In this document: positions 27,210 to 45,903 of the stretch, one piece after another
How positions within the stretch are numbered: position 1 is the first letter of the stretch
Layout of the letters: the number at the start of each line of letters is the position of its first letter
Source of the DNA: Thermoanaerobaculia bacterium
GTDB lineage: Bacteria; Acidobacteriota; Thermoanaerobaculia; Multivoradales; Multivoraceae
Length of the DNA: 64,000 bases
Reading direction: 5' to 3'
Assembly: GCA_963664405.1 (NCBI GenBank)
Contig: OY761158.1
Location: 5,664,001-5,728,000 of the forward strand
Position numbers and translations under genes: made by a program
The notes under the pieces: generated by a model
What the model saw: the letters and a program-made list of their open reading frames with translations, nothing else
Told to the model about the DNA's origin: nothing
Database searches by the model: none

Positions 27210-27325
27210 GGTGCTGAACTGGGCTCGATCTGGGAGGCGCGAGCCTACCATCTGGGCCGAGTGCGGCGGCCCGTCTTACCCGGGCGTACGTCAGATTTGT
27301 GAGATGAGGTGGTTGGGTGCGGCTG

Positions 27326-28690: not shown

Positions 28691-29060
28691 CCTCCGGATC
28701 CTCCGCCCTTCGCAGTGCCGCGTCGCACAGCTGCTCGCTGATCTCGATCAGCTCCCGAGCCAGGCGCCGAAAGCGCCGGCACTCGTCAATCTGCGCTCTG
28801 GTGCGCTCGACGCCTGGGCCTGGGGGGATGACCTTGGTCACAGTCTTGCCCTCGACCCGGCGGGTGAGTGACCAGCTCGGGCCATGCCCCGGCTCGGAGG
28901 GCCGCGCACAGTGGCAGCCCGGCTTGCCGCACTTGCGGTAGCGTCCGACCAAAGATCCGGGGCGCATCTCGCCGATATTGCCCAGCAGCTCTCGCACTTC
29001 TCGGCGTCGCTTCTCTAGCTCGGCAAGGCGGGGCGGAGTGTCGGTCATGGCAGCCTCCAT
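28629..29060 (-). CDS. IS accessory orfA (DUF6788-like, Cys/His motif)
   Basis: MRPGSL..RYRKCGKPGCHCA....HGP; overlaps the transposase frame at an AAAAAGGGGG run. Confidence 0.7.
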   Translation of the reverse strand: MEAAMTDTPPRLAELEKRRREVRELLGNIGEMRPGSLVGRYRKCGKPGCHCARPSEPGHGPSWSLTRRVEGKTVTKVIPPGPGVERTRAQIDECRRFRRLARELIEISEQLCDAALRRAEDPEEQKGGSRRFSRPRSRPKSRR

Positions 29061-29167
29061 TCTGACAGTCTATAGAGCTGTCAGAACACTATCGCCAAGA
29101 CCTACGGAACGTCAACCCGGATCCAGCTCATCACTCTGGTGTCGTGCACCCGTCTTACCCCGTTCAC

Positions 29168-29197
29168 TTGACAGCGCGCGGACCCAACTGCTTAAAT
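29168..29197 (+). promoter_or_regulatory. Putative sigma70 promoter of the aro-his-trp operon
   Basis: Perfect TTGACA (29168-73), 18-nt spacer, TG-n-TTAAAT imperfect extended -10. Confidence 0.5.
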
Positions 29198-29207
29198 CTG
29201 CGGCGCA

Positions 29208-29297
29208 ATGTTGGGCGTGAAGATCAACTACGCTGTTTCCCAGGCTGTTGCCCATGGTCTTTGGTGGGTCTGGGTGCATCCTCACGCCGAGGAATAG
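29208..29297 (+). CDS. Putative His/Trp attenuator leader peptide (29 aa)
   Basis: Manual translation MLGVKINYAVSQAVAHGLWWVWVHPHAEE*: 3 Trp + 3 His within 11 codons, lying between the promoter and terminator ahead of the his and trp genes. Confidence 0.8.
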   Translation: MLGVKINYAVSQAVAHGLWWVWVHPHAEE

Positions 29298-29360
29298 GTC
29301 GGGATCCGAGTCCCGGCCATTGGCACCGGGACGAGAGAAGGCCGACACGACGGGCACTCC

Positions 29361-29391
29361 CTCCTTCCGGGTCTGGAAGGAGTTTTGTTTT
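29361..29391 (+). terminator. Intrinsic terminator (attenuator) hairpin overlapping the aroDE RBS
   Basis: CTCCTTCC-GGGTCT-GGAAGGAG followed by TTTTGTTTT. The 3' arm is SD-like, 7 nt before the in-frame TTG 29390. Confidence 0.8.
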
Positions 29392-30877
29392 GGCAGATCG
29401 TGCTTCGCTTGTCGCGACGCTGACAGACGCCCCCGAGGTGGCTGACTTCGACAGTCTTCCACCGGGTGTCGATTGGGTCGAGGTGCGCGCCGATCTCGTC
29501 GGCGATGTTCCCGCCTCCTGGTTTCGCGACCGATGCGGCGCTCGCCTTCTGTATACCCTGCGCAGCCGTGCGGAGGGCGGGTCTTTTCGAGGTTCCCAGG
29601 CCGATCGACGCAAGCGGCTCGGTGTCGCTGCGCAGAGCTACGATCGGGTCGACTTGGAGGCGGACAGAGACCTGCAGGATGCTCTTCTGGCAGAGGTGCC
29701 ACCGGAGAAGAGACTACTGTCGTGGCATGGTCCTGGCCGTGAGAAGTCCGAGCTCGCCGAGATCTTTGATCGCATGTCCCAGGTGGACGCAGAGCTCTAC
29801 AAGATGGTGCCGATGGCGGGCGAGGCGTGTGAGGAGATCGCACCGTTGCAGCTCCTTGCGGAGCTGGGCCGGCGTGACGTTGTTGCCTTTTCGACGGGTG
29901 AGAGTGGCGCGTGGACTCGCTTTGTCGCTCCCTACCTCGGCGCGCCCGTGCTCTTCGGGGCCTGGGGGGCCGAGGCCGGCGCGCCAGGGCAGCCGTCGGT
30001 GAAACGGATCGAATCGGACTACCCCTTTCCGGATTTACCTCCGGTGGAGTGCATCTACGGCATCGTCGGCAGCCCGGTCACCCAGTCTCTCTCTCCGCGG
30101 ATGCACAACGCTTCTTACCGTGAGCACGGGCTTCCCGCGCTCTACGTTCCCTTCGGCGCCGCGAGCTTCGCGGATTTCTGGCTCGAGATCGTAGAGGGAG
30201 GCGTGCTGCCGGGCGTGGGGTTGCCGATTCGCGGGCTCAGCGTGACGGCTCCCTACAAGGCTTCGGCAGTCGCCGTTGCCGGAGCCCTGAGTCCGCTCGC
30301 GCAGCGTAGCGACAGTGTCAATACCTTGGTCTTGCGCGACGGCGTGTGGGAGGGCGAGACGACGGACCCTGAGGGTGTTCGTGGCGCCCTCGAAGCGGTT
30401 GGTGTCGCGCTCGCGGGGCGGCGGGTGGCGGTGCTCGGTTGCGGTGGCGCCGGGCGCTCGGTCGCCGTCGGCCTGGCCAATTACGGGGCAGAGGTAACGG
30501 TGGCGAATCGCAGCGTTGAAAAGGGTGAAAAGGTCGCAGCGACTTTGCAACTGCCATTCGCCAGTCTCGGAGATTTTGATCCCCACGGCTACGATGTGGT
30601 GGTCAATGCCACCGCGCTGGGGCACGAGGAGAACGACCCCCTTCCCTTCGACCCCACAGGCTTGCGCTCGGGCGCCGCCGTCGTCGACATGGTCTACTCG
30701 ACCGAACCGACGCCGCTACTGCGGGCGGTTCGCGATCTCGGTCATGTCGGAGTCGATGGTAGGGAGGTCTTGTTGCATCAGGCGCTGGCACAGTTCCCTC
30801 TGATGACGGGAGCGCAAATGTCTCTCGAAACGAGCCGTCGACTGCTCGGCTTGCCTCTCTCGGGGGAGCTCTCATGA
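29390..30877 (+). CDS. aroDE: Bifunctional type I 3-dehydroquinate dehydratase / shikimate dehydrogenase
   Basis: AroD: VEVRADL, TLRSRAEGG, SWH, YKMV, APGQ. AroE: SLSPRMHN, SVTAPYK, SVNT, GCGGAGR, NRS, DMVY. Confidence 0.88.
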   Translation: MADRASLVATLTDAPEVADFDSLPPGVDWVEVRADLVGDVPASWFRDRCGARLLYTLRSRAEGGSFRGSQADRRKRLGVAAQSYDRVDLEADRDLQDALLAEVPPEKRLLSWHGPGREKSELAEIFDRMSQVDAELYKMVPMAGEACEEIAPLQLLAELGRRDVVAFSTGESGAWTRFVAPYLGAPVLFGAWGAEAGAPGQPSVKRIESDYPFPDLPPVECIYGIVGSPVTQSLSPRMHNASYREHGLPALYVPFGAASFADFWLEIVEGGVLPGVGLPIRGLSVTAPYKASAVAVAGALSPLAQRSDSVNTLVLRDGVWEGETTDPEGVRGALEAVGVALAGRRVAVLGCGGAGRSVAVGLANYGAEVTVANRSVEKGEKVAATLQLPFASLGDFDPHGYDVVVNATALGHEENDPLPFDPTGLRSGAAVVDMVYSTEPTPLLRAVRDLGHVGVDGREVLLHQALAQFPLMTGAQMSLETSRRLLGLPLSGELS

Positions 30878-31842
30878 GGATCACTTCCGCATTCCCTACC
30901 GGAGTCACTGCACTCCTCTTCGAAGCTGCCGAACGGAGGCGCACTTACGAAGACTCGGCGGTGACCGAGTTGCGCAGCCGAGGCTTCGCCGAGGCGATCT
31001 TGCCGATTCTCGATTACTTCGATCCCTACGAAGGCTTGGTCTCGGATAGGGCGAGAGAAGAGCTCTATCGTTTTGTCGATCGCGACGGAGAGTTGTTGGC
31101 ACTGCGCGGTGACTTCACTCCGATGCTTGCCCGCGTTCTCGCGCCGCGTGTCGGCTCCTTGGAGCTGCCTCTCCGTTTGTTTTATCGAGGAGATCGTGTG
31201 CGCCATCAGGAGGAACGGCCGGGTCGCCTTCGTGAGTACTACGAGATGGGTGCGGAGCTTCTTGGCGTACCGGGTAGAGATGCCGACGAAGAAATGCTCG
31301 AGCTCTTTCTGCGCATCCTCTCTATACAATCAGGCCCCAGCCTCCGCGTGGTTCTCAGTTTTGCGGGCGCTCTGGATCGGCTTCTTCTGCAACAGCCTGC
31401 CGATTCACGGGCGGGTCTGTTGCAGGCGTTGTCACGACGCGATCGGCGGGTGGTGCGCCAGGCCGGTGCGACACTCCTCCAGGTCGTGGAGGAGGGCAGG
31501 CCGGTGAGCCCAGGAGACCTCGGCGACGAGGGCGCCCTCGGCCTCGCCAGCCTGGAGGAGCTGATCGCTAAGGTCCAGGCGGGCTGTGACGATCTCGAAG
31601 TGACCTTCAACATCGATCTGGCTGAGTTTGCCCAAGATACCCTCGACCCTGAGCTTGCCGCGGCTTCGGGCACCCCTCCCTACTACGATGGCCCGGTATT
31701 CAAGGCCTATGTCGAGGGCCAGGCACTTTCTGCAGGGAGAGGAGGGCGTTACGACCGCCTCTTTCGACGTCTCGGAGCGGACTTAGCGGCAGTGGGCTTC
31801 TCGGTCAGTCCCGATCGCATATTGGGGGGCTCGACGTCATGA
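30874..31842 (+). CDS. hisZ: ATP phosphoribosyltransferase regulatory subunit
   Basis: HisRS-like ALRGDFTP, GRLREYYEMGAEL, YYDG, GRGGRYD; precedes a short HisG. Confidence 0.9.
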   Translation: MRITSAFPTGVTALLFEAAERRRTYEDSAVTELRSRGFAEAILPILDYFDPYEGLVSDRAREELYRFVDRDGELLALRGDFTPMLARVLAPRVGSLELPLRLFYRGDRVRHQEERPGRLREYYEMGAELLGVPGRDADEEMLELFLRILSIQSGPSLRVVLSFAGALDRLLLQQPADSRAGLLQALSRRDRRVVRQAGATLLQVVEEGRPVSPGDLGDEGALGLASLEELIAKVQAGCDDLEVTFNIDLAEFAQDTLDPELAAASGTPPYYDGPVFKAYVEGQALSAGRGGRYDRLFRRLGADLAAVGFSVSPDRILGGSTS

Positions 31843-32468
31843 TGCGTCTCGCCCTTCCCAAGGGACGAAATCTGGGTGTGACTCTTAGCGCTCTCCGCGC
31901 TGCCGGAATCGGACTTGCCGGTCTCGAGGAGAACGGGAGGCGATTACGTGGATCTTTCGAGGTGGATGCTCTGGAGGTCCTCCTGCTCAAAGACTGGGAT
32001 GTTCCCCTCTATGTCGAGTATGGCGTGGCCGATTTCGGCGTAGTGGGCAGCGACGTGCTGGCGGAGCGGGATGGCGACGTACTCGTGCCCGCCAGGCTCA
32101 GCGAAGGGGGCTGTCGTCTCTCTCTCATCGGGCCCGAGGGCAGTTTGCCCGCGGCGGGTAGTCAGGTACGGTTGGCCACGAAATACCCCGGGCTCGCGCG
32201 CCGTCTGGTCGCGTCTCGGTCGTGGGGTGCCGAAATCGTCAAGCTTTCAGGTTCTGTCGAGCTCGGTCCCTTGCTCCAACTGAGTGATGTTGCGCTGGAC
32301 ATCGTGCAGACCGGTACAACGTTGCGCGAGAATCAGCTCGTCGAGCTCGAGGTGGTGGAGGATGTTTACCCCTGCCTGATCGTGAACCGCGCCTCCTATC
32401 AGCGCTACCGCTCGCGGATCAACGAGCTGGTTCGAAGATTGGAAGAACAGGAGTTGGTGCTCTTATGA
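31839..32468 (+). CDS. hisG: ATP phosphoribosyltransferase (short form)
   Basis: LALPKGR, DVPLYVEYG.ADFGVVG.D, ATKYP, GSVELGP, DIVQTG.TL.EN. Confidence 0.95.
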   Translation: MMRLALPKGRNLGVTLSALRAAGIGLAGLEENGRRLRGSFEVDALEVLLLKDWDVPLYVEYGVADFGVVGSDVLAERDGDVLVPARLSEGGCRLSLIGPEGSLPAAGSQVRLATKYPGLARRLVASRSWGAEIVKLSGSVELGPLLQLSDVALDIVQTGTTLRENQLVELEVVEDVYPCLIVNRASYQRYRSRINELVRRLEEQELVLL

Positions 32469-33763
32469 CGATGCGACGAGTCAAAGTAGGGTCTCGGAAG
32501 GGTGAGCGCGAGCTCTCGCGACTGGTGGGGCGCGCGCGCAGAGTTGTGGACACCAAGACCCTTCGTCGTGCGTCGAAGATCGTAAATCAGGTGCGGCGAC
32601 ACGGAGATCGCGCTTTGGCTGAGCTCGTGCGCGAGCTCGATGGTGTCGAGGTGGGCGAGGTGTCGAGCCTCCGCTGCCAACCGGGGCGGGTTGGCGAGTT
32701 GGAGGGGGTGCTGCCACCGAATTTTGTCGAAGCACTCGAGCGAGCCATTCAATCGGTCGACGAGTTCCACGCTCCGCAGGTCAGGGCCGGCTATGAGCTT
32801 GACCGTGACGGCGTCTGGCTCGAAGAGCGGCGCGCGCCTCTGCGCAGAGTTGGTGTCTACATCCCTGGGGGTCGCTTCCCTTACCCCTCGACGGTCCTGA
32901 TGACCGTGATTCCCGCCAGGCTTGCCGGCGTCGAAGAGATCGTCGTGGCCACGCCACCGCGTGCCTACGCCGAGAGCGCAGCGCTGCGCTATACCCTAGC
33001 TGCTCTCGATGTTCGAGAGATCTGGGGCATGGGCGGTGCCCAGGCTGTCGCCGCGCTGGCGTATGGCACCGAGAGCATTCGCCGCGTCGACAAGATCGTG
33101 GGGCCTGGAAACGTCTGGGTGAACGCCGCCAAGAAGATCGTAGCCGGTGACGTTGCGATCGATGGAGTCCCAGGGCCGACCGAGATCGTTGTTTTCGCCG
33201 ATGGATCGGCCGACCCATCGCTGGTGGCAGCCGATCTGCTGGCGCAGGCGGAGCACGACCCGATGGCGGCCGCGATCCTGGTGACACCGGAACCGGCGCT
33301 GGCGAAGGCAGTCGATGAGGAGCTCGCAGCGCAGCTCGGCGAGCTCTCGGCTCCCGCAGTCGCGCGCGAGGCGATAAAGCGCTTCGGTGTTGCGCTGATC
33401 GTGGAGGATTTGGAAGAGGGCCTGCGTGTCGCCGAGGTGATTGCACCGGAACATCTGCAGCTCATGGGCGAGGGCCCCGAGTCCTTGTCTCATCGCGCCC
33501 ACGCCGCGGGTGCGGTTCTTGTCGGCAGCGCCACGACGGCGGTATTTGGTGACTACGTGGCGGGCCCGAGTCACGTGCTTCCCACCTGTGGGTCCGCGCG
33601 ATTCGCTTCGTCTCTCGGAGTCGAGGACTTCGTTCGTCGTAGTCACTGCATTCGTTTTAGCCGAGAAGCGGCAAGCGATTGGAGCGAGACGGCGGCGACT
33701 CTAGCCGATGTCGAAGGCCTCGAGGCCCACGCGGCGGCGGCGCGGAGGCGGAGGTCGCCGTGA
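32465..33763 (+). CDS. hisD: Histidinol dehydrogenase
   Basis: GVYIPGG, GGAQAVAALAYG, VGPGN, DLLAQAEHD, APEHL, GDYVAGPSHVLPT. Confidence 0.96.
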   Translation: MTMRRVKVGSRKGERELSRLVGRARRVVDTKTLRRASKIVNQVRRHGDRALAELVRELDGVEVGEVSSLRCQPGRVGELEGVLPPNFVEALERAIQSVDEFHAPQVRAGYELDRDGVWLEERRAPLRRVGVYIPGGRFPYPSTVLMTVIPARLAGVEEIVVATPPRAYAESAALRYTLAALDVREIWGMGGAQAVAALAYGTESIRRVDKIVGPGNVWVNAAKKIVAGDVAIDGVPGPTEIVVFADGSADPSLVAADLLAQAEHDPMAAAILVTPEPALAKAVDEELAAQLGELSAPAVAREAIKRFGVALIVEDLEEGLRVAEVIAPEHLQLMGEGPESLSHRAHAAGAVLVGSATTAVFGDYVAGPSHVLPTCGSARFASSLGVEDFVRRSHCIRFSREAASDWSETAATLADVEGLEAHAAAARRRRSP

Positions 33764-34863
33764 GTGCTGTTGCCGGCCCCGCCGCCTTCGTCCGACCCGA
33801 GCTGCGTGAGCTCCACGCCTATACGCTGGAGCAGAGCGCTTGCCGCTTCAAGTTGGACCAGAACGAAGTGCCTTGGGACCTTCCTCAGCGTCTCAAGCGC
33901 TTGGCGCTGGACCGTCTTGCTGGGAGCGACTGGGCCCGCTATCCGGACTTCCACGCCGATGAGTTGCGCTTAGCGCTGTCGGAGCGGCACCAATGGCCCA
34001 TCGAGGGCATTCTCGCCGGCAATGGTTCCAACGAGCTGCTCGGCATCTGTCTCGAGGCCGTCTGCCGTCCCGGGACCGAGGTCCTCGGCTGTCTACCGAG
34101 CTTCGGCCTCTACGAGATGTTCGTACGCCGTGCCGGTGGCCGCTCATGCTTTCTCGAGCCCCGCCCTGATCTGAGACTGCCGCTGGACGAGCTGATGGAA
34201 GAAGTGGCGAGAGATCCACGCCGGCCGGTGCTGCTCTGTACTCCGAACAATCCCACCGGTGCGGCGGCTAGCCCGGATCAGCTCGGGGAGTTGGCACGTA
34301 GCTTGGAAGCCCCGCTTCTCCTCGACAATGCCTATGGTGAGTTCTGCCGCTGGGACTATCGTCCGTTGCTCCGTCAGCACCCGAATCTCGTATTGTTCCG
34401 GACTTTTTCGAAGGCTTGGTCACTTGGCGGGATGCGGCTTGGCTATCTTCTTGCCAGTCCCGATCTGGTGGCTGAGCTGATCAAGGTCAAGCTTCCCTAC
34501 AACCTCAACCACGCCGCCATAGCCGCAGGTCTTGCCGTCCTCGCCGATGCCCAGGTTGCAGAACGCCGCGTTCGTGTCCTCACTGCGCGACGAGAGCAGT
34601 GGCGAGAGATGATGGTGAGTCACGGTCTTCATGTCTACCCTTCTGAGGGCAACTTTCTGCTGGTTTCCGTGGAGCCTGTATTGGCGTCGAACCAAGGCCT
34701 GGCACAAGCGGTCAGGTCTTTGCGCGATGGGCTCAGCGACCGAGGAATACTGGTTCGGGACGTCAGCGGCTATCCGGGGCTCGCCGGTTGTTTTCGAGTC
34801 GGAGTCGGCAATGGCGCTGCTCTGCGTGCGACCCGTAGCGCGCTCGAGGAGATTCTCGAATGA
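33760..34863 (+). CDS. hisC: Histidinol-phosphate aminotransferase
   Basis: LDQNE, RYPD, GNGSNE, NNPTG, RTFSKAW..GMRLGY. Confidence 0.93.
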   Translation: MSAVAGPAAFVRPELRELHAYTLEQSACRFKLDQNEVPWDLPQRLKRLALDRLAGSDWARYPDFHADELRLALSERHQWPIEGILAGNGSNELLGICLEAVCRPGTEVLGCLPSFGLYEMFVRRAGGRSCFLEPRPDLRLPLDELMEEVARDPRRPVLLCTPNNPTGAAASPDQLGELARSLEAPLLLDNAYGEFCRWDYRPLLRQHPNLVLFRTFSKAWSLGGMRLGYLLASPDLVAELIKVKLPYNLNHAAIAAGLAVLADAQVAERRVRVLTARREQWREMMVSHGLHVYPSEGNFLLVSVEPVLASNQGLAQAVRSLRDGLSDRGILVRDVSGYPGLAGCFRVGVGNGAALRATRSALEEILE

Positions 34864-35462
34864 GCTCACGACAGGCAGAGATTGTTCGCAAGACCAAGGA
34901 GACCGAGGTTCGGGCACGTCTGAACCTGGATGGTGGCCCGGTTGTGGTTCACGTTCCCAATGGTTTCTTCGGTCATATGCTCGAAGCGTTGGCCAAGCAC
35001 TCGGGTTTCGGACTCGAGATCGAGGCTCAGGGCGACACGCAGGTGGACCTTCACCACACCGTTGAAGATGTAGGCATCGTCCTCGGGGAGTGTCTGCGGG
35101 AGGCGTTGGGAGAGGCTCGCGGCGTTGTTCGCTTCGGGCAGGCTCACGCGCCCCTCGATGAGGCTCTGGCCCGCGCAGTCGTCGATCTTTCGGGAAGGGG
35201 CTTCCTCGATCTCACTCTGGGAGCCGAGCTTGCCGCGAGCTGGGTAACGCCGGAGTTCCCGATGACCCTGCTGCACGACTTCTTTCATGCCTTCGCCGAG
35301 CGCGGGCGGGTGACCCTGCATGTGGATGTGCTGAAAGGCCGCAATCCCCATCATGTCGCCGAAGCCAGCTTCAAGGCGGTGGCGGTGGCTCTGCGCCAGG
35401 CGACAGCTCAGCGCTCCGGTGTCGACGATGTACCTTCGACCAAGGGCACGCTGAGCTCTTGA
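34860..35462 (+). CDS. hisB: Imidazoleglycerol-phosphate dehydratase (monofunctional)
   Basis: RKTKET, DLHHTVED, PLDEAL, NPHHVAEASFKA, PSTKG. Confidence 0.96.
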   Translation: MSSRQAEIVRKTKETEVRARLNLDGGPVVVHVPNGFFGHMLEALAKHSGFGLEIEAQGDTQVDLHHTVEDVGIVLGECLREALGEARGVVRFGQAHAPLDEALARAVVDLSGRGFLDLTLGAELAASWVTPEFPMTLLHDFFHAFAERGRVTLHVDVLKGRNPHHVAEASFKAVAVALRQATAQRSGVDDVPSTKGTLSS

Positions 35463-35471
35463 GGTGGAGTG

Positions 35472-36095
35472 ATGCGAGCTATAGTCATCGACGCCGGTGT
35501 CGGCAACCTGGGCAACTTGAAACGGGCGGTAGAGTCTCTCGGCGCCGAAGGGAAGATCACCCACGATCCGGCCGAGGTAGCCTCCAGCCGTGTACTTCTG
35601 TTGCCGGGGGTAGGTGCCTTCCGCCCTCCCCGCGAGACCCTGAGGGGTGCTCTCGAAGAAGCTATCGACCACGCTCTCGAGCAGGGGGCTTGGCTGCTGG
35701 GGATCTGCATCGGCTTCCAGCTTCTCTTCGACGAGAGCGAAGAGTTCGGTCTCACCGACGGCCTCGGCCTGCTCTCGGGCCGAGTCGAGCCGCTGCCCAC
35801 GGGTGTCGAGCTACCTCATATGGGCTGGAACCGGCTTCACTCACTGAGCCCACATCCGCTTCTCGACGGCATTGCCGAGGGATCCTTCGTGTACTTCGTG
35901 CACAGTTTCGCGCCGGCGGGGGTTCCCCTAGAGGGCACTCTTGCCGCCTGCACTCACGGCCGTACGTTTCCCGCCATCTGTGGGAGAGAGCGTGTGCTCG
36001 GCACCCAATTCCACCCCGAGAAGAGCGGTTCCATCGGCCTGCGGCTGCTGCGCAACTACCTGGAGATGGCGAATGGAACTGCTGCCGGCAATTGA
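35472..36095 (+). CDS. hisH: IGP synthase glutaminase subunit
   Basis: LPGVGAF, GICIGFQ, PHMGWN, YFVHSF, QFHPEKS. Confidence 0.96.
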   Translation: MRAIVIDAGVGNLGNLKRAVESLGAEGKITHDPAEVASSRVLLLPGVGAFRPPRETLRGALEEAIDHALEQGAWLLGICIGFQLLFDESEEFGLTDGLGLLSGRVEPLPTGVELPHMGWNRLHSLSPHPLLDGIAEGSFVYFVHSFAPAGVPLEGTLAACTHGRTFPAICGRERVLGTQFHPEKSGSIGLRLLRNYLEMANGTAAGN

Positions 36096-36801
36096 TCTCA
36101 GAAAGGGCCGAGTCGTTCGTTTGCGCAAGGGTGACGATGCCCAGCGCACGACTTACGATGTGGATCCGTTGGATACCCTCCTTCATTATGCCGATCTCGG
36201 AGTCGGGCGCGTTCATGTGGTCGACCTCGATGCGGCGTTCGGCGAATTGCCACAACGCGAGCTGGTCGAGAGACTCGCGGGTCACTCCCTGGCTCCACGC
36301 ATTGAGCTCGGGGGTGGGTTGCGCGACGCGGAGTCGATCGAGTGGGCTTTCGACGCCGGCGTGGAGCGCGCGGTCATAACGTCGATGATCGTCAACGATT
36401 TCGAGCTCTTCGGCGAGCTCGCAGTAGCCTGGCCCGACCGTCTGGTGGCTGCCCTCGATGTTGCGGATGGAGCTCTGCGTTACTCGGGTTGGACGGCGAG
36501 CGCCGAGAGAGATCTCGACGATATTTGCCTCGACCTTGCCCCGTTGCCGCTGGCCGCGGCCCTGGTCACCGACATCTCTCGCGACGGCACTCTCACTGGG
36601 CCCAACGTCGAGCTTCTCTGTGAGGTTGCCGGAAAGGCTTGCGCTCCTGGCATTCTCTCCGGTGGGGTGCGTTCTTTGGACGATCTTCGACAGGCTCGCC
36701 AAGCCGCCGCAGTTGCAGAGGTCGTGGTGGGAAAAGCGCTCTACGATGGCGCGATCGATGCGCGCGAGGCCATGCGGGTGTGTCGCGGGGAGGTCGAATG
36801 A
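36073..36801 (+). CDS. hisA: ProFAR isomerase
   Basis: [41 protein letters not shown]. Confidence 0.95.
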
Positions 36802-37601
36802 CAGCGGAACCTCGGTCGGCCACCGCCACCGGCCTCACCGCTCGCATCATCCCCTGCCTCGATGTCGCGGCAGGAAGGGTGGTGAAAGGGGTCAACTTCA
36901 AAGACCTGCGCGATCAGGGCGATCCGGCCGACTGCGCTCTTCGATACGCCGAGCAGGGTGCCGACGAGATCGTCTTTCTCGACATTACGGCGGCTCCGGA
37001 GCGGCGACGGACCAACCTCGAGTGGGTCACCCGCACCGCCGAACAGGTGTTTGTACCGTTGAGCGTCGGCGGCGGCGTGCGAGAAGTGGAAGATGGACGC
37101 AAACTGCTGCAAGCGGGAGCCGACAAGGTGGCTGTGAACACCGCGGCGGTAGAGCGCCCTGGTCTACTCTCCGAGCTGGCACGGCGCTTCGGCTCGCAGT
37201 GTGTCGTACTTTCGGTCGATGCCCGCCGGATCGGCGGAGACACGGGATCGCCAGGCTGGGAAGTAGTGACCCAGGGCGGGCGGAAGCCGACTGGGAAGGA
37301 TGCGCTGACCTGGATTCGCGAAGGCGTCGAGCGCGGCGCCGGTGAGATCCTGCTCACCAGCATCGATGCGGACGGCACTCAAGACGGTTACGATCTGGAG
37401 CTCCTGCGCCGTGTCTCGGAGATTGTCTCGGTGCCGGTAGTGGCTTCCGGCGGCGCCGGCACAGTCGCGCATCTCGCCCGTGCTCTGGAGGCGGGATCCT
37501 CGGCGGTGCTCGCCGCTTCGATCTTCCATCAATCTATGTTTACTCCTAACGAGGTGAAGCGCCAGCTCGATGAGATGGGCTTCGCCATGAGGCTTCCATG
37601 A
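36798..37601 (+). CDS. hisF: IGP synthase cyclase subunit
   Basis: [47 protein letters not shown]. Confidence 0.97.
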
Positions 37602-37918
37602 GCGCACCATCTTCGACAGGCATGGACTTGGGTTGGCTTTGGGACACTTTGGAGGAGAGGCGTCGTGAGGGCGATGCTGACAGTTCATATACGGCTCGGC
37701 TGCTCGACTCCGGCCCGGATCGCATCGCCCAGAAGGTTGGCGAAGAGGCGACAGAGACCATCATCGCCGGCCTGAGGATGCGCTTGGACGGTGGGGCGGA
37801 GGAGTTGGTCGGCGAGGCCGCGGATCTGGTGTACCACCTGATGGTCTTTCTGCTCGTCAACGACTTGACCCTGGCTGATGTGGTCGACGAGCTGCAACGG
37901 AGGCATCGAGACCCATGA
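37598..37918 (+). CDS. hisE: Phosphoribosyl-ATP diphosphatase (stand-alone)
   Basis: SSYTARLL..G...[11 protein letters not shown]...EAADLVYHL; no cyclohydrolase domain. Confidence 0.93.
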
Positions 37919-39402
37919 GCGCGGGCGGCACTTTGGGTCCTCCGGCTGCGGTCGCGTCTTCGCAGAGGGTGCGCACTGCTGTTCCGCACACTCTCGAGTT
38001 CATCGCCGATACTCTTACCCCGGTCGGGGTATACCGACGATTGCGTTCGGCCTCTCCGTACGCTTTTCTGCTCGAGTCGATCACGGGTGGCGAGCAGGTG
38101 TCTCGATTCAGCTTTGTCGGCGCCGGCCCTTCGGTCGTGTGCCGACTGTGGCCGGACCGCCTCGAGATCGAGGAGGGAGGCGAGAGAAGCATCGCAGACG
38201 GGTTACCTCTGGATGCACTGCAAGAATTGCTTGCCGGTATCCGCAGTACCCCTAGCGACATTCCCCTGACCGGGGGGTGGGTCGGCTTTTTCGGCTACGA
38301 CACCATCCGATTGGTCGAGCGACTCCCGAATCGCCCCACCGACCCCTATGGGCTGCCCTATGCGGCATTAGCTCGCTACGACAGCCTTGTAGTTTTCGAC
38401 CATGCCAGACAGCGAGTCGTGGCGTTGGCTAACGAGATCGAGGGCGAGGTGGACGCCGACAGAGCCAGAGCCCGGCTCGGCGAGCTTTCGGATCTGCTCG
38501 TACGTGCCGATGAGAGTGGGGCTGTCGCCATGCCGCCCGCTGGCACGGTGCAGCCGGCGGCGACCCTGCCTCCGACCCTGTCGAGCGAGGAGTACCAAGA
38601 GGCGGTGCGCAAGGCGAAGGCCTATATCCAGGCTGGGGATATCTTTCAGGTGGTCCCGGCAAGGCGTTGGCGCGCGCTGAAGTGTCCGGCACCACTGGAG
38701 GTTTATCGCGCCTTGCGCATGGTGAACCCGAGTCCCTATATGGTGCTACTCGAGACGCCGGAGCTCGCTTTGGTGTCGGGGTCGCCGGAGATGGTAGTGC
38801 GGAAATCGGGGGAAGTGCTCGAGAGTCGTCCGATTGCGGGCACACGGCCTCGTGGTGGGACTCCGGAAGAGGATCACCGCTTGGCGCAGGACCTGCTGGC
38901 GGACGCCAAGGAGAGGGCCGAGCACCTCATGCTCGTCGATCTGCATCGAAACGATCTAGGTCGGGTTGCACAGGCGGCGAGCGTTCATGTGCCCGATTTC
39001 ATGGCGGTTGAGTACTACTCGCATGTCATCCATCTGGTGTCCTCGGTCGAAGCCCGTATTCGGCCGGAGTGCTCTGCCCTCGATGCGCTGCTGGCATCTT
39101 TCCCTGCCGGTACTCTCTCGGGCGCACCGAAGATTCGGGCGATGGAGATCATCGATGAGCTGGAGCCTGAGGCGCGTGGCCCTTACGGTGGTGCCATCGG
39201 CTACTTCTCTTATTCGGGCGATCTAGACACATGCATCACCATACGTACGATCGTGATGGTTGACGGCGAGGCGTCGGTAAGCGCGGGAGCCGGCATCGTC
39301 GCCGACTCCGACCCTGAAACCGAAGTGCTAGAGACGGAGAACAAGGCGGCGGCTCTGCTACAGGCCCTGGGCTTGGCTGGCGCGTTGGAGGAGGAGCGAT
39401 GA
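37915..39402 (+). CDS. trpE: Anthranilate synthase component I
   Basis: FLLES, GDIFQVV, NPSPYM, PIAGT, KERAEHLMLVDL.RND, SGAPKIRAMEII, AGAGIV. Confidence 0.95.
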   Translation: MSAGGTLGPPAAVASSQRVRTAVPHTLEFIADTLTPVGVYRRLRSASPYAFLLESITGGEQVSRFSFVGAGPSVVCRLWPDRLEIEEGGERSIADGLPLDALQELLAGIRSTPSDIPLTGGWVGFFGYDTIRLVERLPNRPTDPYGLPYAALARYDSLVVFDHARQRVVALANEIEGEVDADRARARLGELSDLLVRADESGAVAMPPAGTVQPAATLPPTLSSEEYQEAVRKAKAYIQAGDIFQVVPARRWRALKCPAPLEVYRALRMVNPSPYMVLLETPELALVSGSPEMVVRKSGEVLESRPIAGTRPRGGTPEEDHRLAQDLLADAKERAEHLMLVDLHRNDLGRVAQAASVHVPDFMAVEYYSHVIHLVSSVEARIRPECSALDALLASFPAGTLSGAPKIRAMEIIDELEPEARGPYGGAIGYFSYSGDLDTCITIRTIVMVDGEASVSAGAGIVADSDPETEVLETENKAAALLQALGLAGALEEER

Positions 39403-39992
39403 TACTGGTGATCGACAATTATGATTCGTTCACCTACAACCTGGTGCAGCTGCTCCTCGGTCTTGAACAGGAAGTGGTGGTACGGCGCAACGACGTCGCT
39501 TCGGTGCCGGAGTTGTTGGCTCTCGAGCCCGATGCGATCGTGCTTTCGCCAGGGCCGGGCCGGCCGGAGAACGCCGGTATTTGTGTCGACCTGATTCGCT
39601 CCGAGCCGTCCGCCCCTTTGCTCGGAGTCTGTCTCGGCCATCAGGCCTTGGCCCTCGCCTTTGGTGGCGCTATCGAGGCGGCGCCGGTTCTGATGCACGG
39701 CAAGACCTCTCGAGTGCACCATACGGGCACGGGAATCCTCAGCGGTCTGCCCGACCCCTTCGAGGCTACGCGGTACCACAGCCTCCGGGTCGCGGAGGAG
39801 CATCAGCCGGATTGTCTCGAGGTACACGCTCGTGCCGAGGACGATGGCAGCGTGATGGCTATGGCGCACTGTGAGCTTCCCTACTGGGGAGTGCAGTTTC
39901 ATCCCGAGTCGATTCTCACCACGACTGGCGGCCAGCTTCTCGAGCAGTTTCTCGAGCTGTCGCGAGCCCAGACGGTCGAAGCCGGAGGTTGA
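39399..39992 (+). CDS. trpG: Anthranilate synthase component II
   Basis: IDNYDSFTYNL, SPGPG, GVCLGHQ, RYHSL, QFHPES. Confidence 0.95.
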   Translation: MILVIDNYDSFTYNLVQLLLGLEQEVVVRRNDVASVPELLALEPDAIVLSPGPGRPENAGICVDLIRSEPSAPLLGVCLGHQALALAFGGAIEAAPVLMHGKTSRVHHTGTGILSGLPDPFEATRYHSLRVAEEHQPDCLEVHARAEDDGSVMAMAHCELPYWGVQFHPESILTTTGGQLLEQFLELSRAQTVEAGG

Positions 39993-39997
39993 GGCGC

Positions 39998-41002
39998 ATG
40001 AACGAGCGAGAAGCACTGCAGCGTTGGATTGACGGCGAGGATCTCGATCGCGGCGAGGTCGAGGGGCTCTTCGGCCGTCTTATGGACGGTGCTCTGTCCG
40101 ATGTCTACAAGGCCGCCCTCTTGGCCGCTTTGGCCGGCAAAGGAGAGAGCGTCGCGGAGATCACGGGCGCCGCCGCGGCGATGCGGAGCCGGGTCACTCC
40201 GATACCGCATCATCGTGATCGTCTGGTCGACACCTGTGGAACGGGTGGCGATGGCTCCGGCAGCTTCAACATCTCGACCGCGGCTGCGCTGGTCGCGGCC
40301 GGCGCCGGCGTCGAGATCGCGAAGCATGGCAATCGGTCGGTGTCGTCGCAGTGTGGCTCCGCCGATGTGCTCGAGCAACTGGGCGTGAAAGTTCAGGTGT
40401 CGCCGGAGGAGGCCGGGCTGGCTCTCGATACGATTGGTGTCGCGTTTCTCTTTGCGCCGGGGTTACACCCGGCGATGCGAGAGGTGATGCCGGTGCGCCG
40501 CGAGCTAGGAGTGCGCACCGTGTTCAATCTCGTGGCACCGCTCACCAACCCGGCCGGAGCGCGCCGTCAGGTTCTAGGGGTTCCGGAACGACGATGGGTG
40601 TCGACGCATGCCGCGGTGCTTGCCGACCTCGGCTGTGACCATGCGCTGGTGGTGCATGGTGACGGGCTCGACGAGATCACCACCACGGGGGAGACTCACG
40701 TTGCTGAAGTCCGAGGACCCGACGTCGGGACGACCACTATCCGCCCCGAGGAGTTTGGAATTCGCCCGGTGTCGAAGGCGGATCTGGCCGGAGGCAGCGC
40801 CGAGGTCAATGCCGCCTCCATGATGAAGATCCTGGAGGGAGAAGAGGGTCCGCTGGCCGATATAAGCGCGCTCAACGCAGGCGCCGCGATCTACGTAGGA
40901 GGCTTGGCGGATGATCTCGCGAGTGGTGTCGATCTGGCCCGCGAGTGCCTCGCCTCCGGGGCCGCCCTCGCCAAACTGGAAGAGCTCAAGGGAATCGGAT
41001 GA
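39998..41002 (+). CDS. trpD: Anthranilate phosphoribosyltransferase
   Basis: DTCGTGGDG..FNIST, KHGNRSVSS..GSAD, RTVFN, DGLDEI. Confidence 0.97.
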   Translation: MNEREALQRWIDGEDLDRGEVEGLFGRLMDGALSDVYKAALLAALAGKGESVAEITGAAAAMRSRVTPIPHHRDRLVDTCGTGGDGSGSFNISTAAALVAAGAGVEIAKHGNRSVSSQCGSADVLEQLGVKVQVSPEEAGLALDTIGVAFLFAPGLHPAMREVMPVRRELGVRTVFNLVAPLTNPAGARRQVLGVPERRWVSTHAAVLADLGCDHALVVHGDGLDEITTTGETHVAEVRGPDVGTTTIRPEEFGIRPVSKADLAGGSAEVNAASMMKILEGEEGPLADISALNAGAAIYVGGLADDLASGVDLARECLASGAALAKLEELKGIG

Positions 41003-41802
41003 TGACTCCGTCGGCGCCTCCAGACATCCTCTTGCGTATCGCGGCCCGTCGCCGCGTACGTTACGGATTGGCGCCCGGCGAGTACGCGGAGCCCGCCACT
41101 CCTGGGCCCGAGGGTAGCGATGTCCACAACGCCTTCTGTGCAGCCTTGGCCGATCGCCGCGGTCGCGCGGTGATTGCAGAGGTGAAGATGGGCTCGCCGA
41201 AGTTGGGCTCCTTGGTGGGGACCTTCGATCCCTTGGAGCAGGCGCGCACTTACGCCCGAAGCGGCGCCGCGGCCCTCTCGGTCGTGGTCGAGCCGGACTT
41301 CTTTCACGGTAGCTACGATTTGCTCCGCCAATGCCAGCGCGCCAGCGGCCTACCGGCGATCGCCAAGGACTTCGTGGTGTGCGGGCGACAGCTGGCCGAG
41401 GCGAAGGAGGCCGGAGCGAGCGCTGTCCTGCTGATCGCCGCTCTCTACGAGGCCGAGACCCTGCGAGCCTTCGCGGGCGAGGCCAGGCGGCTGGGTTTGG
41501 TTCCGCTGGTCGAGACCCATGATCCCTCTGACTTGGCCAAACTCGGCGGCTCGCGCTGGGAGCTGGTGGGAGTGAACAACCGAGACCTGCGCACTTTCCA
41601 AGTCGACCTCGACCGCTCGATCGGCCTGCTCGACAGGCTTCCCGCGGGTGCGCTGAAGGTCGCGGAGAGCGGTATCCACAGCTCGTGCGATGTGGAACGG
41701 CTCCGGTCGGCCGGCTTTGATGCCTTTCTCATCGGCGAGTCTCTGGTTACAGCGCAAGATCCGGCGGCGAAGTTGATGGAGCTCATGGGAGAGCCGGTAT
41801 GA
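40999..41802 (+). CDS. trpC: Indole-3-glycerol phosphate synthase
   Basis: IAEVK..SP, KDF, LVE.H, GVNNRDL, VAESGI, LIGESL. Confidence 0.94.
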   Translation: MMTPSAPPDILLRIAARRRVRYGLAPGEYAEPATPGPEGSDVHNAFCAALADRRGRAVIAEVKMGSPKLGSLVGTFDPLEQARTYARSGAAALSVVVEPDFFHGSYDLLRQCQRASGLPAIAKDFVVCGRQLAEAKEAGASAVLLIAALYEAETLRAFAGEARRLGLVPLVETHDPSDLAKLGGSRWELVGVNNRDLRTFQVDLDRSIGLLDRLPAGALKVAESGIHSSCDVERLRSAGFDAFLIGESLVTAQDPAAKLMELMGEPV

Positions 41803-42431
41803 GTCGCCCCAAGGTCAAGATCTGCGGCCTGACGACGGTCGAGGATGTCGAGACCGCGCTTGCTCTAGGAGCCGACTTCGTCGGCCTCAATTTCTACGAG
41901 CCGAGCCCGCGTTACGTGGACCTGGGGACTGCACGTCGGCTCCGCGACACTGTTGGTGACCGAGCGACGGTGGTGGGTGTCTTTGTGAATTCGACTTCGG
42001 CCGGGGAGATCGCCGATGATGTCGGCCTCGATCTCTTGCAGTTCCATGGTGACGAGGGCCCCGCGTTCGTAGCGGAGTTCGCCGAGCGAGCGATCAAGGT
42101 CTTCCGAGTTGGCAAGCACTTTGATGCCGCGCAGCTCGAAGACTATGCGGCCACGTGGGGCTACCTGTTCGACAATGGCAACGTCTCCGCGCGCGGAGGA
42201 AGCGGTTTGCCATGGTCCTGGGAACTGGTCAGCGCGGTTGCGACCGACAAACCGATTTTCATTGCCGGCGGTGTCTCTCCCCAGAACGTGGGCTCCCTCT
42301 GTGCCCGGGTTCATCCGTGGGGCATCGACGTGTGCTCGGGGGTCGAAGCCTCCAAGGGGCGCAAGGATCCCGCTCTTCTGCAACGACTCTTCCAGGAGAT
42401 TGAAGATGGCGAAGCACAAGCAGCTTCCTGA
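41799..42431 (+). CDS. trpF: Phosphoribosylanthranilate isomerase
   Basis: [31 protein letters not shown]...G.KD. Confidence 0.95.
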
Positions 42432-43686
42432 TCCGCAGGGGCATTTTGGCCCCTACGGCGGTCGCTACGTTCCCGAAACTCTGATGGGGCCACTCGAGGA
42501 GCTCGCCCGAGCCTATGCAAAGGCCCAGAAGAACCGCAGCTTCAAGCGGCGGCTGGACGAGCTTCTCGAGCACTACGCTGGTAGACCGACGCCGCTCTAT
42601 TTCGCCGAACAGCTTTCGAAGCACCTAGGTGGAGCCAGGATCTGGCTCAAGCGAGAGGATCTTCTCCACACCGGGGCGCACAAGATCAACAATACCCTCG
42701 GCCAGGCGTTGCTGACCAAGGAGATGGGCAAGAGCCGAGTGATCGCCGAGACCGGAGCGGGTCAGCACGGTGTTGCGACGGCAGCGGCGGCGGCCCTCCT
42801 CGACCTCGAATGCACGGTCTACATGGGTGCCGAAGACATGCGTCGGCAACGTCTCAATGTGGATCGGATGCGGCTGATGGGGGCCGAGGTGGTTGCGGTC
42901 GATTCCGGGAGTCGCACTTTGAAAGATGCCATCAACGAGGCGATGCGCGACTGGGTTAGCTCGGTCAGAACGACTCATTACATCCTCGGCTCTGTGCTCG
43001 GTCCCGAGCCTTATCCTCGTATGGTGCGTGACTTTCACAAGGTCATTGGGGAAGAGGCACGCGCACAGCTGAAGCGGCAGGCGGGCCGGCCGGACCCCGA
43101 CATCGCGATCGCCTGCGTCGGCGGCGGCTCGAACTCGATCGGTCTGTTCTGGGCCTTCCTCGACCGGCCGAGCGTCCGGTTGGTGGGTGTCGAGGCCGGG
43201 GGAAGGGGCGAAGATCTGGGCGAGCACGCGGCCCGCTTCTCGGGCGGTCGTCTCGGCGTCCTGCATGGCACTCGCACTTTGGTGCTTCAAGACGAAGACG
43301 GCCAGGTCTCGACGACCCACTCCGTCTCCGCGGGCTTGGACTACCCGGCCGTGGGACCGGAACATGTCTGGCTCCATGATCAAGAGCGTATCGAGTATGT
43401 CCACGCCTCCGATGCCGAAGCGATCGAGGCTTTTCACCTGCTCTCCTCGAAGGAAGGTATTCTTCCCGCCCTCGAGAGCTCTCATGCGATCGCGGAAGTG
43501 ATGAAGCATGCGCCGAGGCTCGGGGCGGATCGCATCATTCTGGTGAATCTCTCGGGCCGTGGTGACAAAGATGTGGAGTCTGTGAACGAGTTCGACGAGG
43601 CTCACCGGCCGCCGGTCCTGAGCGACAACGTGACGGTCCACCCCGCGGCACGGGCTGCGGCCGAGGGCGAGGAGAACCAGTCATGA
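42406..43686 (+). CDS. trpB: Tryptophan synthase beta chain
   Basis: [53 protein letters not shown]. Confidence 0.98.
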
Positions 43687-44555
43687 GAGCTCGCCGCCGC
43701 TTTAGCGCCGCAGTCCGAGGCCACCAGAGCGACGAAATTGCAGCGGTCTTTTCCCGCTGCCGAAAGGAGAGGCGGGCTGCCTTCATCCCCTATATCTGTG
43801 CCGGTGACCCGTCGCTCGAGCGAACCGTCGATCTGCTCGAGGCTCTGGTCGCCGGCGGCGCTGACTTGATCGAGCTCGGCGTTCCTTTCTCGGACCCGAT
43901 CGCCGACGGACCCACGATCCAACGCGCGACCACACGGGCGCTGGCCGCAGGCACGACGCTTTCTGCGATCCTACAGATCGTTGCCGAGAGTCGGCCCAGG
44001 CTCGGAGTCCCGATCGTGCTTTTCAGCTACTTCAATCCGATCCACAATCGCGGGGTCGCCACTTTCGCCGAGCAGGCCGCGTCTTCTGGAGTGGACGGAT
44101 TGCTGTGCGTGGACCTCCCTCCAGAGGAAGCCGTCGCGGAGGCGGAGCCTGCTTTGGTCGAGAGAGGTATCGATCTGATCTTTCTTCTGGCCCCCACCAG
44201 CACTCCGATGCGGATCAAGATCGTCGCCAAGGCCAGTCGAGGGTTTGTCTACTACGTTGCTCGCACTGGGGTAACCGGAGAGCGGGAGCGACTCCCCGAG
44301 GAGTTGGTCTCCGAGCTCGCGCGACTACGCAAAATCGTCAAGCTCCCCGTCGCGGTCGGCTTTGGGATTTCGAGCGCGGAGCAGGTGGCGCAGGTCGCGA
44401 GCGTGGCCGACGGGGTGGTGGTCGGATCTGCTTTGGTCCGTCTAATCGAAGAGCAGGCCGCAAGCGAGAATTTGGCGAGCATCCTCGAAACGCGAACTAG
44501 AGAGCTTTCCGAGGCGGTCAGAGAGGGCTGGATGAGAGGCGCTGAGAGCCAATGA
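43683..44555 (+). CDS. trpA: Tryptophan synthase alpha chain
   Basis: [40 protein letters not shown]. Confidence 0.97.
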
Positions 44556-44893
44556 GTTCCGAGGAGGACAGGCCGAGCGCCGCCGCCGACTCCGACGATG
44601 ACGCGGTCGATCGAGCTCTTGCCCGTTTGCGTGAGAACATCGATCAGGTGGACGTGGTTCTGGTCAAGCTGCTCAATCAGCGGGCTGAGTGGGCGCTCGA
44701 GATCGGTGATGTGAAAAAGGCCGCGGGGCTCGCGATCTATCAGCCGGGGAGGGAGAAGAAGGTGCATGAGCGCGTGCAGTCCGAGAACCGAGGGCCGCTG
44801 GACGCCCCGGCGATGAGGCGCCTCTTCGAGCGCATCATCGACGAGGCCCGCAGTCTCGAGCGTGTCGCGAGCGGAGAGGGGGAAGAACAGTGA
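44552..44893 (+). CDS. Chorismate mutase (AroQ type)
   Basis: LARLRENIDQVD..LVKLLNQR..WA..IG.VK, Y.P.RE. Confidence 0.9.
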   Translation: MSSEEDRPSAAADSDDDAVDRALARLRENIDQVDVVLVKLLNQRAEWALEIGDVKKAAGLAIYQPGREKKVHERVQSENRGPLDAPAMRRLFERIIDEARSLERVASGEGEEQ

Positions 44894-45903
44894 TTGTGGT
44901 GATGAAGCCGCGGGTGGACGAGTCGGCGGTGGAGAGGGTGATCGACAGGCTGGTGAAGGCCGGCTGCGACATTCACCGCTCTACCGGTGCCGAGCGCACA
45001 ATTGTCGGTGCGATAGGTGTCACCGCGGAGATGGATCTCTCCGACTACGAGATTCTGCCGGGAGTCGAGAGCGTGCTTCGCGTCTCCACGCCTTACAATC
45101 TGGTCAGCCGGGCTTTCAAGCCCGAAGGCTCGAGGATCGAGATCGGCCAGGTCACGATTGGCGGAAACGAGGTCGTTGCGATAGCCGGACCCGGGCAGGT
45201 CGAATCTAGAGAACAGATCCGTAGCACTGCTGAGCAGGTCGCGCGCGCCGGCGCCAGGATTCTACGCGCTTCGGCCTTCACCCCGCGCTCCCGTCCCTAC
45301 GCCTTTCAGGGGCTCGGGGAGCAGGGCCTGCAGTGGTTGCGCGAGGCCGCCGACGAGTTCGGCCTGCTGGTCGCGAGCGAGGTGATGGCGCCCACCCATG
45401 TCGACACCGTGGCCGGTTATGCCCATCTGCTGCTGGTGGGTGGCCGTCATATGCAGAATCACGCCCTGCTCAGAGAGCTCGGAGGGGCGCGGCGTCCGGT
45501 GATTCTGAAACGCGGGATCGCCGCGACCATGGAAGACTGGCTGCTTGCGGCCGAGTACGTAGCCGCCGCCGGTGAGGACCGGATCGTGCTCTGTGAGCGG
45601 GGGATCCGCACCTTCGAGACTGCGACCCGTTACACCCTGGATCTGTCGGTCATTCCTGCGATTCACGAGATGAGTCATCTGCCAGTGATCGCCGACCCGA
45701 GCTACGGCACGGGCCTACGGGACAAGGTCGCGCCGATGGCCCGCGCCGCGGTTGCCGCAGGTGCCGACGGGCTCTTGATCGAGGTTCATTGCGACGCCGA
45801 CGAGGCCCGCTCCGACGCAGCACAGACCCTCTACCCCGACGATTTTCAGCGCCTGATGGACCAGCTTCGTATTATCGTACCGGCTCTCGGTCGGTCGGTC
45901 TGA
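44890..45903 (+). CDS. Type I-beta DAHP synthase homologue with N-terminal regulatory domain; active site degenerate
   Basis: Overall AroF I-beta motifs (PYAFQG, LKRG, CERGIRTFE, IEVH, SD..Q), but GPC->GPG, KPR->TPR, DPSH->DPSY. Confidence 0.85.
   Translation: MIVVMKPRVDESAVERVIDRLVKAGCDIHRSTGAERTIVGAIGVTAEMDLSDYEILPGVESVLRVSTPYNLVSRAFKPEGSRIEIGQVTIGGNEVVAIAGPGQVESREQIRSTAEQVARAGARILRASAFTPRSRPYAFQGLGEQGLQWLREAADEFGLLVASEVMAPTHVDTVAGYAHLLLVGGRHMQNHALLRELGGARRPVILKRGIAATMEDWLLAAEYVAAAGEDRIVLCERGIRTFETATRYTLDLSVIPAIHEMSHLPVIADPSYGTGLRDKVAPMARAAVAAGADGLLIEVHCDADEARSDAAQTLYPDDFQRLMDQLRIIVPALGRSV

Follow-up and report, generated by a model that had tools for sequence, protein, structure and literature searches.

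A stretch of 64,000 nucleotides (nt) from a Thermoanaerobaculia bacterium (contig OY761158.1, positions 5,664,001 to 5,728,000; hereafter the window) contains, at 29168 to 29392, a short leader region directly ahead of an operon in which aro, his and trp genes are merged. Reading of the sequence and modelled folding of the transcript lead us to regard this region as very probably a ribosome-mediated transcription attenuator, with a leader peptide that senses both Trp and His, the products of two separate pathways. The features of an attenuator are present: an open reading frame (ORF) with cognate codons, a predicted intrinsic terminator ahead of the first gene and an antiterminator that is mutually exclusive with it. 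A first-pass annotation made from the letters alone had proposed a dual His/Trp attenuator here, and the elements on which it relied, namely TTGACA at 29168, a W/H ORF at 29208-29297, GTCCCGG at 29310-16 and a terminator followed by a U-tract, were all recovered at those positions.

The leader, like all features described below unless noted otherwise, lies on the forward strand. Its putative promoter (29168..29197) consists of a -35 element TTGACA (29168-29173) and a -10 element TTAAAT (29192-29197) separated by an 18-nt spacer, and was missed by a consensus scanner because position 2 of the -10 is not A. Of 33 related leaders, 31 combine an exact TTGACA with a T.TAAT-like -10 at a distance of 16-18 nt. 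Ten nt downstream of the -10 in the window is the ATG (29208) of a 29-codon ORF that ends with TAG at 29295-29297 and encodes MLGVKINYAVSQAVAHGLWWVWVHPHAEE, the C-terminal tail of which contains WWVWVHPH. The regulatory codon cluster, W19 W20 (V) W22 (V) H24 (P) H26, occupies 29262..29285, with the Trp codons at 29262-73 and the His codons at 29277-85. Among 102,474 stop-free windows of 12 codons in the six frames of the 64 kb, this leader is the sole site with at least three TGG and at least three CAY codons, a concentration beyond chance, and relatives keep the leader frame, the position of the stop and the W/H tail.

Five conserved elements follow the stop codon: A (CCGGG-like), B (GTCCCGG), C-D (CCGGGACGAG(R)G), E (CCTCCTTCCGG) and F (CCGGAAGGAGG and a T-run). 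Together they can form four mutually exclusive helices, P1 (A/B), P2 (B/C), the antiterminator (C-D/E) and the terminator (E/F). P1 joins the 5' arm A (29297-29305), the first base of which is the last base of the leader stop codon in the window, to the 3' arm B (29310-29318) across a loop at 29306-09 (-14.9 kcal/mol). P2 pairs B at 29310-29316 with C at 29326-29332 (GTCCCGG/CCGGGAC, -13.9 kcal/mol) and, judged by its position, would act as an anti-antiterminator. The antiterminator pairs 29326-31, 29333-35 and 29337-38 with 29365-70, 29361-63 and 29358-59 (-20.6 kcal/mol) and spans the entire 5' arm of the terminator. The predicted intrinsic terminator itself has nine G+C-rich pairs (-13.1 kcal/mol) between CTCCTTCCG (29361-29369) and TGGAAGGAG (29374-29382), a GGTC loop and, as TTTTGTTTTG, a U-tract at 29383-92; the hairpin is kept in all aligned relatives, and a T-run follows the stem in the window and in most families. 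Of the competing helices that the first-pass annotation had drawn around GTCCCGG, the pairing with 29326-32 stands, and the other partner is 29297-29305, in the conserved helix P1 that abuts the stop. Its candidate antiterminator, GAAGG 29337-41 with CCTTC 29363-67, was set aside, having only 5 base pairs, and is replaced by the conserved 29326-29338/29358-29370, which extends over the full length of that terminator arm.

All four helices are stable in 36 of 36 aligned leaders, with median energies of -12.8 (P1), -16.3 (P2), -17.3 (antiterminator) and -19.2 kcal/mol (terminator). On alignment A2, P2 is paired in 94.7% of cells against at most 68.2% for the best slid control, and the antiterminator in 91.4% against at most 67.6%, with a covariation score reached by 0 of 500 shuffles. 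Alignment A4, of 58 sequences, was fitted to P2 and the terminator, and the counts for these two (95.6 and 84.0% of cells, respectively) are biased towards structure; the antiterminator is paired there in 91.2% of cells, with slid controls at or below 73.8%, and P1 in 75.3%, with slid controls at or below 52.4% and both sides changed in 7 of 9 pairs. As the MAFFT columns for arm A and for the 3' arm of the terminator were out of register between groups, the misregister of arm A led us to judge P1 additionally by folding each sequence. The helices were derived from the very sequences used to score them, and the signal is largely one of conservation, not covariation; clear compensatory changes, jointly in A, B and C, are seen in genome G029. 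A cmscan search of 28000-31000 against Rfam with E values up to 10 gave no relevant match, returning three matches to snoRNA models (E = 7-8), and neither Trp_leader (RF00513) nor His_leader (RF00514) matched the window leader.

The spacing between the stop codon and these helices would suit a fold selected by the position of the ribosome. Counted from the first base of the stop codon, P1 starts at a distance of 1-7 nt and B at +12 to +19 in each of the 36 leaders. A terminating ribosome covers about 12-13 nt past the first base of the A-site codon, and so, with this geometry, a ribosome at the stop would melt arm A yet leave B free. The last His codon in related leaders is mostly 4 codons upstream of the stop, where a stalled ribosome would just clear arm A.

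From these features we infer an order of events that involves translation of the leader, helices forming in turn, termination at the U-tract and a response to starvation. Transcription would start at the promoter at 29168-29197, with the 29-codon leader translated immediately. With Trp- and His-tRNA both charged, the ribosome would reach the stop at 29295-97 and cover arm A of P1 (29297-29305), upon which B (29310-16) would pair with C (29326-32) and sequester the antiterminator strand; the terminator (29361-82) and its U-tract would then form and the transcript would end at the aroDE start codon. A ribosome stalled at the Trp codons (29262-73) or the His codons (29277-85) would instead mask the part of the coding sequence with which C-D otherwise pairs and leave arm A free, such that A and B pair, the 5' arm of the terminator (29358-70) is taken up by C-D and the polymerase enters all 19 genes. 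Once freed, the 3' arm of the terminator would additionally expose the ribosome-binding site of aroDE.

To model this switch, the region 29205-29382 was folded with all bases up to the leading edge of the ribosome, set at +12, held unpaired. The modelled terminator probability is 0.94 without a ribosome, which is explained by the pairing of the Trp-codon stretch (29255-77) with C-D (29323-43) in the free RNA, and is likewise 0.94 with His-16 in the A site. It falls to 0.25 and 0.22 with Trp-19 and Trp-20 in the A site and to 0.18 and 0.20 with His-24 and His-26, and returns to 0.86 at Ala-27 and to 0.94 at Glu-28, at Glu-29 and at the stop. The loss of the terminator upon a stall at either the Trp or the His codons, which the first-pass annotation had anticipated as read-through, implies in the model that shortage of either amino acid suffices, i.e. 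that the leader works as an OR gate.

That annotation had also named beforehand a search of relatives for conserved W/H mini-ORFs and covarying hairpins as a check on the idea, and this search was positive. All but one of 41 related genomes, among them metagenome-assembled genomes that carry the labels Acidobacteriota, Thermoanaerobaculia, Holophagales and Ca. Multivoradales, yielded AroDE, and 39 loci of up to 18 kb were taken and their gene order determined by tblastn. Together with the window these comprise 32 loci with his genes downstream, most of which run on into trp while some contigs stop earlier, 4 aroDE-trp loci without his, 3 aroDE genes alone and 1 contig that ends after aroDE. 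A W/H leader precedes all 32 his-containing operons: at least two Trp codons lie within the last 14 leader codons in 32 of 32, and at least two His codons in 31 of 32, the other having one. The leader is ahead of aroDE in 30 of these and directly ahead of hisZ, with its own promoter, in 2 (G031 and G034), both detected only by a covariance model. Both codon sets are thus kept across at least nine families of merged operons, and in another order (family f15) all 9 aroDE-his-trp operons examined have ..RHWH.HH. tails. The His codons of the relatives alternate between CAT and CAC and shift in position, yet stay His. None of the three lone aroDE genes carries a leader ORF.

The covariance model, R1, was built from leaders of the class and includes the window in its seed (90.1 bits). 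R1 matches 49 of 151 genomes sampled from the class, including 23 of 23 of the window's family, and 4 of 151 sampled across the phylum; matches from outside the seed include G031, G034, G258, G301 and family f15. Two weak matches, L119 and L126, were discarded as lying within coding sequence, and reverse-strand matches were discarded as being due to the palindromic terminator. In one genome (G010:C1:387602-389246) the leader occurs twice: some 24 kb away from the intact locus, another copy stands ahead of a degraded aroDE that is in three pieces with TAG and TAA stops.

The codons of the leader also follow the content of the operon where the operons of the class are split, with runs of His for his-only operons, WW or WWW for aroDE-trp and Tyr/Phe for operons of chorismate mutase (CM) and DAHP synthase. 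The his-only leaders end in THHHHHHVM (G122), HTWHHHHHHVM (G288), HTRHHHHHHVM (G276), HVHHHHHHH (G280) and, in the window's own order, ARHHHHHHA (G025), and hold no or one Trp codon. WW or WWW without His is found in 5 of 7 aroDE-trp cases, with tails AAWCWWSMAM.. (G029), NSWWFRRS (G250), NWWWYC (G122), NWWWSRRS (G288) and YLWWWRSRC (G229, aroD-like, the downstream genes being partly seen). The two CM-DAHP synthase operons examined both have Tyr/Phe-rich leaders, NWFYYGYYT (G122) and AYYYGFYT (G246), and genome G122 thereby carries three paralogous attenuator leaders with three codon specificities. We think it fairly likely, with less assurance than for the window leader itself, that a single RNA chassis serves a family of attenuators in the class, the codons being rewritten as operons fuse or split: Tyr/Phe for CM-DAHP synthase, Trp for aroDE-trp, His for his, and Trp with His for the fused form.

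Some of the split loci show further peculiarities. HisD was not found in G029, G028 and G039 with the window protein as query (E <= 1e-20; genomes 96-100% complete), and these bacteria may be unable to make histidine or may possess a divergent enzyme; of the three, G029 has the Trp-only leader. In G029 (L041) the sequence CATGGCCATGA after the Trp codons reads His-Gly-His in another frame, and a frameshift that followed the departure of the his genes from the operon may have removed the His codons. The six-His leader of G025 (L133, about 7900-8140) is followed by A/B/C-like elements and by a hairpin that hides the Shine-Dalgarno sequence of hisZ, with no U-tract, and may represent the switch in a purely translational form; R1 gave no match to it.

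Several observations weigh against the reading of the leader as a two-input attenuator. In the window, a stall at Trp-22 is predicted to be ineffective, with a terminator probability of 0.74. Masked folding, which the first-pass annotation had proposed as a check, switches the window leader at equilibrium but not those of most relatives: among the 36 leaders a clear switch is confined to G000, G001 and G013, with a partial one in G033, the terminator probability exceeds 0.5 in 29 of 35 leaders with the ribosome at the last His codon, and in the remaining relatives the terminator wins whatever is masked. For transcripts cut at the apex of the hairpin, the mean occupancy of the terminator 5' arm was 0.555 at the stop and 0.62-0.65 when stalled, a difference too small to be informative. 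A switch in most relatives would therefore have to be kinetic, the helix first formed being first served, and textbook attenuators are likewise assumed to be under kinetic control. The window leader has no Shine-Dalgarno sequence upstream of its ATG, which together with the 10 nt between -10 and ATG makes a leaderless or near-leaderless mRNA plausible there, as the first-pass annotation had proposed; of 33 relatives, however, only 11 have a comparable spacing (7-11 nt), and in the other 22 no in-frame start occurs until 24-65 nt beyond the -10. A G interrupts the U-tract of the window, and the U-tract is weak in genus g11. Codons and operon content do not always agree either: two aroDE-trp loci (G028 and G039) gave no leader by ORF search or R1, the leader of an aroDE-x-trp locus (G256) has HLH ahead of WW, the his-only leader of G288 holds its one Trp codon, and HHHH stands ahead of aroDE-hisD-trpE-like genes in G259, a weak R1 match (E = 0.005) left unclassified. 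The relatives, lastly, are kin, so that the counts are not independent of one another, and the split loci represent a handful of independent events, not dozens.

A further exception bears on the alternative that the attenuator is real while only one amino acid is effectively sensed, the other codon set being a relic or neutral. The aroDE-trp operon of G032 contains no his genes, yet its leader, RWRSHVHLHGA, retains three His codons, and since the full operon persists in its congener G301, with leader GWWRLHVHTHAA, such codons can outlast their use; the predicted failure of the Trp-22 stall points the same way. The his cluster of G032 lies on a different contig from aroDE-trp and is of another type (L132, G032:C3), running from a hisI-like gene through G, D, C, B, H, F and A; identity to the window proteins is only 31-55%, which suggests that the operon-borne his set was replaced. 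We nevertheless hold sensing of a single amino acid to be unlikely, in view of the retention of both codon sets in every merged operon examined in either order, of His codons that vary and move and yet remain His, of the equal effects modelled at Trp and His codons, and of split operons that mostly drop the non-cognate set.

Alternatively, the hairpin might work chiefly or solely at the level of translation, by making the Shine-Dalgarno sequence of aroDE inaccessible, or termination might be Rho-dependent, with no intrinsic termination at the U-tract. The terminator 3' arm does double as the Shine-Dalgarno sequence and the aroDE start codon falls within the U-tract, the G025 his leader has a similar hairpin with no U-tract, and the weak U-tracts of g11 fit this too. 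In g11, however, the hairpin is more than 100 nt ahead of aroDE and so cannot act on its ribosome-binding site, and the T-run after the stem in the window and most families argues for termination; the two modes are moreover not exclusive of each other, and we give this explanation a slightly smaller chance than the preceding one. That the RNA binds a protein or ligand, in the manner of a riboswitch, a T-box or a TRAP target, with the ORF incidental or the peptide having its own job, we judge highly improbable. Sequence around CCGGGACGAG is conserved beyond what pairing alone demands, and abstracts on peTrpL describe a trans role for a trpL leader peptide; however, the conserved CCGGGACGAG is accounted for by its two alternative partners, Rfam holds no match, the in-frame stop invariably lies 1-7 nt ahead of P1, codon identity rather than nucleotide sequence is kept, and codon content changes with operon content on otherwise similar RNA. 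Sensing of both Trp and His by a translating ribosome hence remains the reading that we favor.

The operon that would be so regulated comprises 19 genes with mostly 4-nt overlaps (29390..45903, from the ORF list with NCBIfam and Pfam). The first-pass annotation had taken the downstream genes to be an aro-his-trp set, and the assignments bear this out: the order is aroDE, hisZ, hisG, hisD, hisC, hisB, hisH, hisA, hisF, hisE, trpE, trpG, trpD, trpC, trpF, trpB, trpA, chorismate mutase and DAHP synthase. Internal terminator-like sites are not enriched in the operon (12 seen, 10.8 ± 3.8 expected). The likely start of aroDE is the TTG at 29390-29392, within the U-tract, with the terminator 3' arm GGAAGGAG (29374-29382) as its Shine-Dalgarno sequence; the start context GTTTTGG is common to the window and its nearest relatives. 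A longer form of aroDE from GTG 29144 was rejected, as homologues align from residues 1-7 of the form that starts at TTG 29390. A Shine-Dalgarno sequence in the terminator arm and a TTG start in the U-tract are present at the equivalent sites of L031, L032, L033, L041 and L035, and in G031 the same terminator/Shine-Dalgarno/TTG module stands directly ahead of hisZ, not aroDE. In genus g11 (L057, L058, L059, L069 and L054) the 100-200 nt gap between terminator and aroDE contains tandem units of about 25 nt (GGAGGTCGC...GCGAC...), the copy number of which varies between species.

Small parts of the stretch are present in two RNA libraries. Metatranscriptome run X1 yielded a 165-nt contig, with adapters at both ends, that is identical to 29217-29353; it shows the presence of the leader in an RNA library only and is silent on RNA ends, strand and regulation, and the missing downstream cover in X1 carries no evidential weight. 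Run X2 covers 29575-29812 only, and X9 covers nothing. On its upstream side the leader is adjoined by an insertion sequence (27184-29152, reverse strand) that ends about 16 nt ahead of the -35 and encodes a DUF6788 ORF (28629-29060) and an ISKra4-like transposase (27184-28782). Contigs from DNA runs break at 29122-29152 and run on into other sequence, as expected of a multi-copy repeat.

Textbooks describe classical attenuation, for which most examples come from Proteobacteria, Actinobacteria and a few Firmicutes. Multivalent leaders include those of thr (Thr, Ile), ilvGMEDA (Ile, Leu, Val) and ilvBN, in which any of the amino acids can relieve termination; to our knowledge, every leader so far that reads several amino acids serves a single shared pathway. 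In the window, the fusion of operons appears to have left two unrelated amino acids to be read by one leader, and the relatives with split operons and matching single-specificity leaders offer a natural series of codon rewriting as gene order changes. Were the chassis reading true, the fused form would be the first leader peptide to act as an OR gate across pathways, and a lack of either amino acid would be enough to derepress 19 genes belonging to three pathways. The build would also be very compact, with a leaderless leader ORF, a Shine-Dalgarno sequence provided by the terminator arm and a UUG start that falls within the U-tract. Modelling and sequence together would also give a function to an attenuator in Acidobacteriota, and the system, at about 190 nt, could serve as a compact two-input genetic switch. 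Full-text literature searches, together with passages of PMC4833913 and PMC2965389, gave neither a leader peptide that combines Trp and His nor a characterized attenuator in Acidobacteriota, with subscription journals and supplementary files out of reach and prior mention there possible.

Compared with known systems, the window leader shares with hisL of Salmonella and E. coli the His codons, a predicted intrinsic terminator and a chain of more than four alternative helices whose register would shift by one step with the position of the ribosome. It differs from hisL in having only 2-3 His codons, mixed with Trp, in a stop codon that abuts the first switch helix, in that trp and aro genes would be under the same control and in matching no Rfam sequence or structure. 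Tandem Trp codons recall trpL of E. coli, as do the pairing of the Trp stretch with the antiterminator strand, which resembles that of region 1 with region 2, and a terminator that, in the model, forms without a ribosome; unlike trpL, the window has the additional P1 and P2, His codons, a leaderless-like ORF and a terminator arm that serves as a Shine-Dalgarno sequence, and gives no match to the Rfam model. The thr and ilv leaders read more than one amino acid, as the window leader is proposed to do, although theirs share one branched pathway and those of the window belong to separate pathways joined by operon fusion. For a further ilv leader, that of Corynebacterium ilvBNC, a three-hairpin attenuator is reported (PMC11857589). 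Leaderless poly-Cys short ORFs are reported to act as attenuators in mycobacteria (bioRxiv 10.1101/834739), and there too a leaderless short ORF senses an amino acid and controls the downstream operon, though the amino acid and the phylum are others. The mechanism that we propose is thus classical, and what would be new, as far as sequence and modelling can tell, is the two-pathway leader, the phylum, the terminator/Shine-Dalgarno/start design and the series of re-coded leaders. In the aro-trp-his supraoperon of Bacillus subtilis, aromatic and trp genes and a his gene are likewise co-transcribed, with attenuation before trp by TRAP, the subject of PMC3064811 and PMC4027176; the sensor there is a Trp-binding protein that reads Trp only, whereas the sensor proposed for the window is the translating ribosome itself, reading Trp and His.

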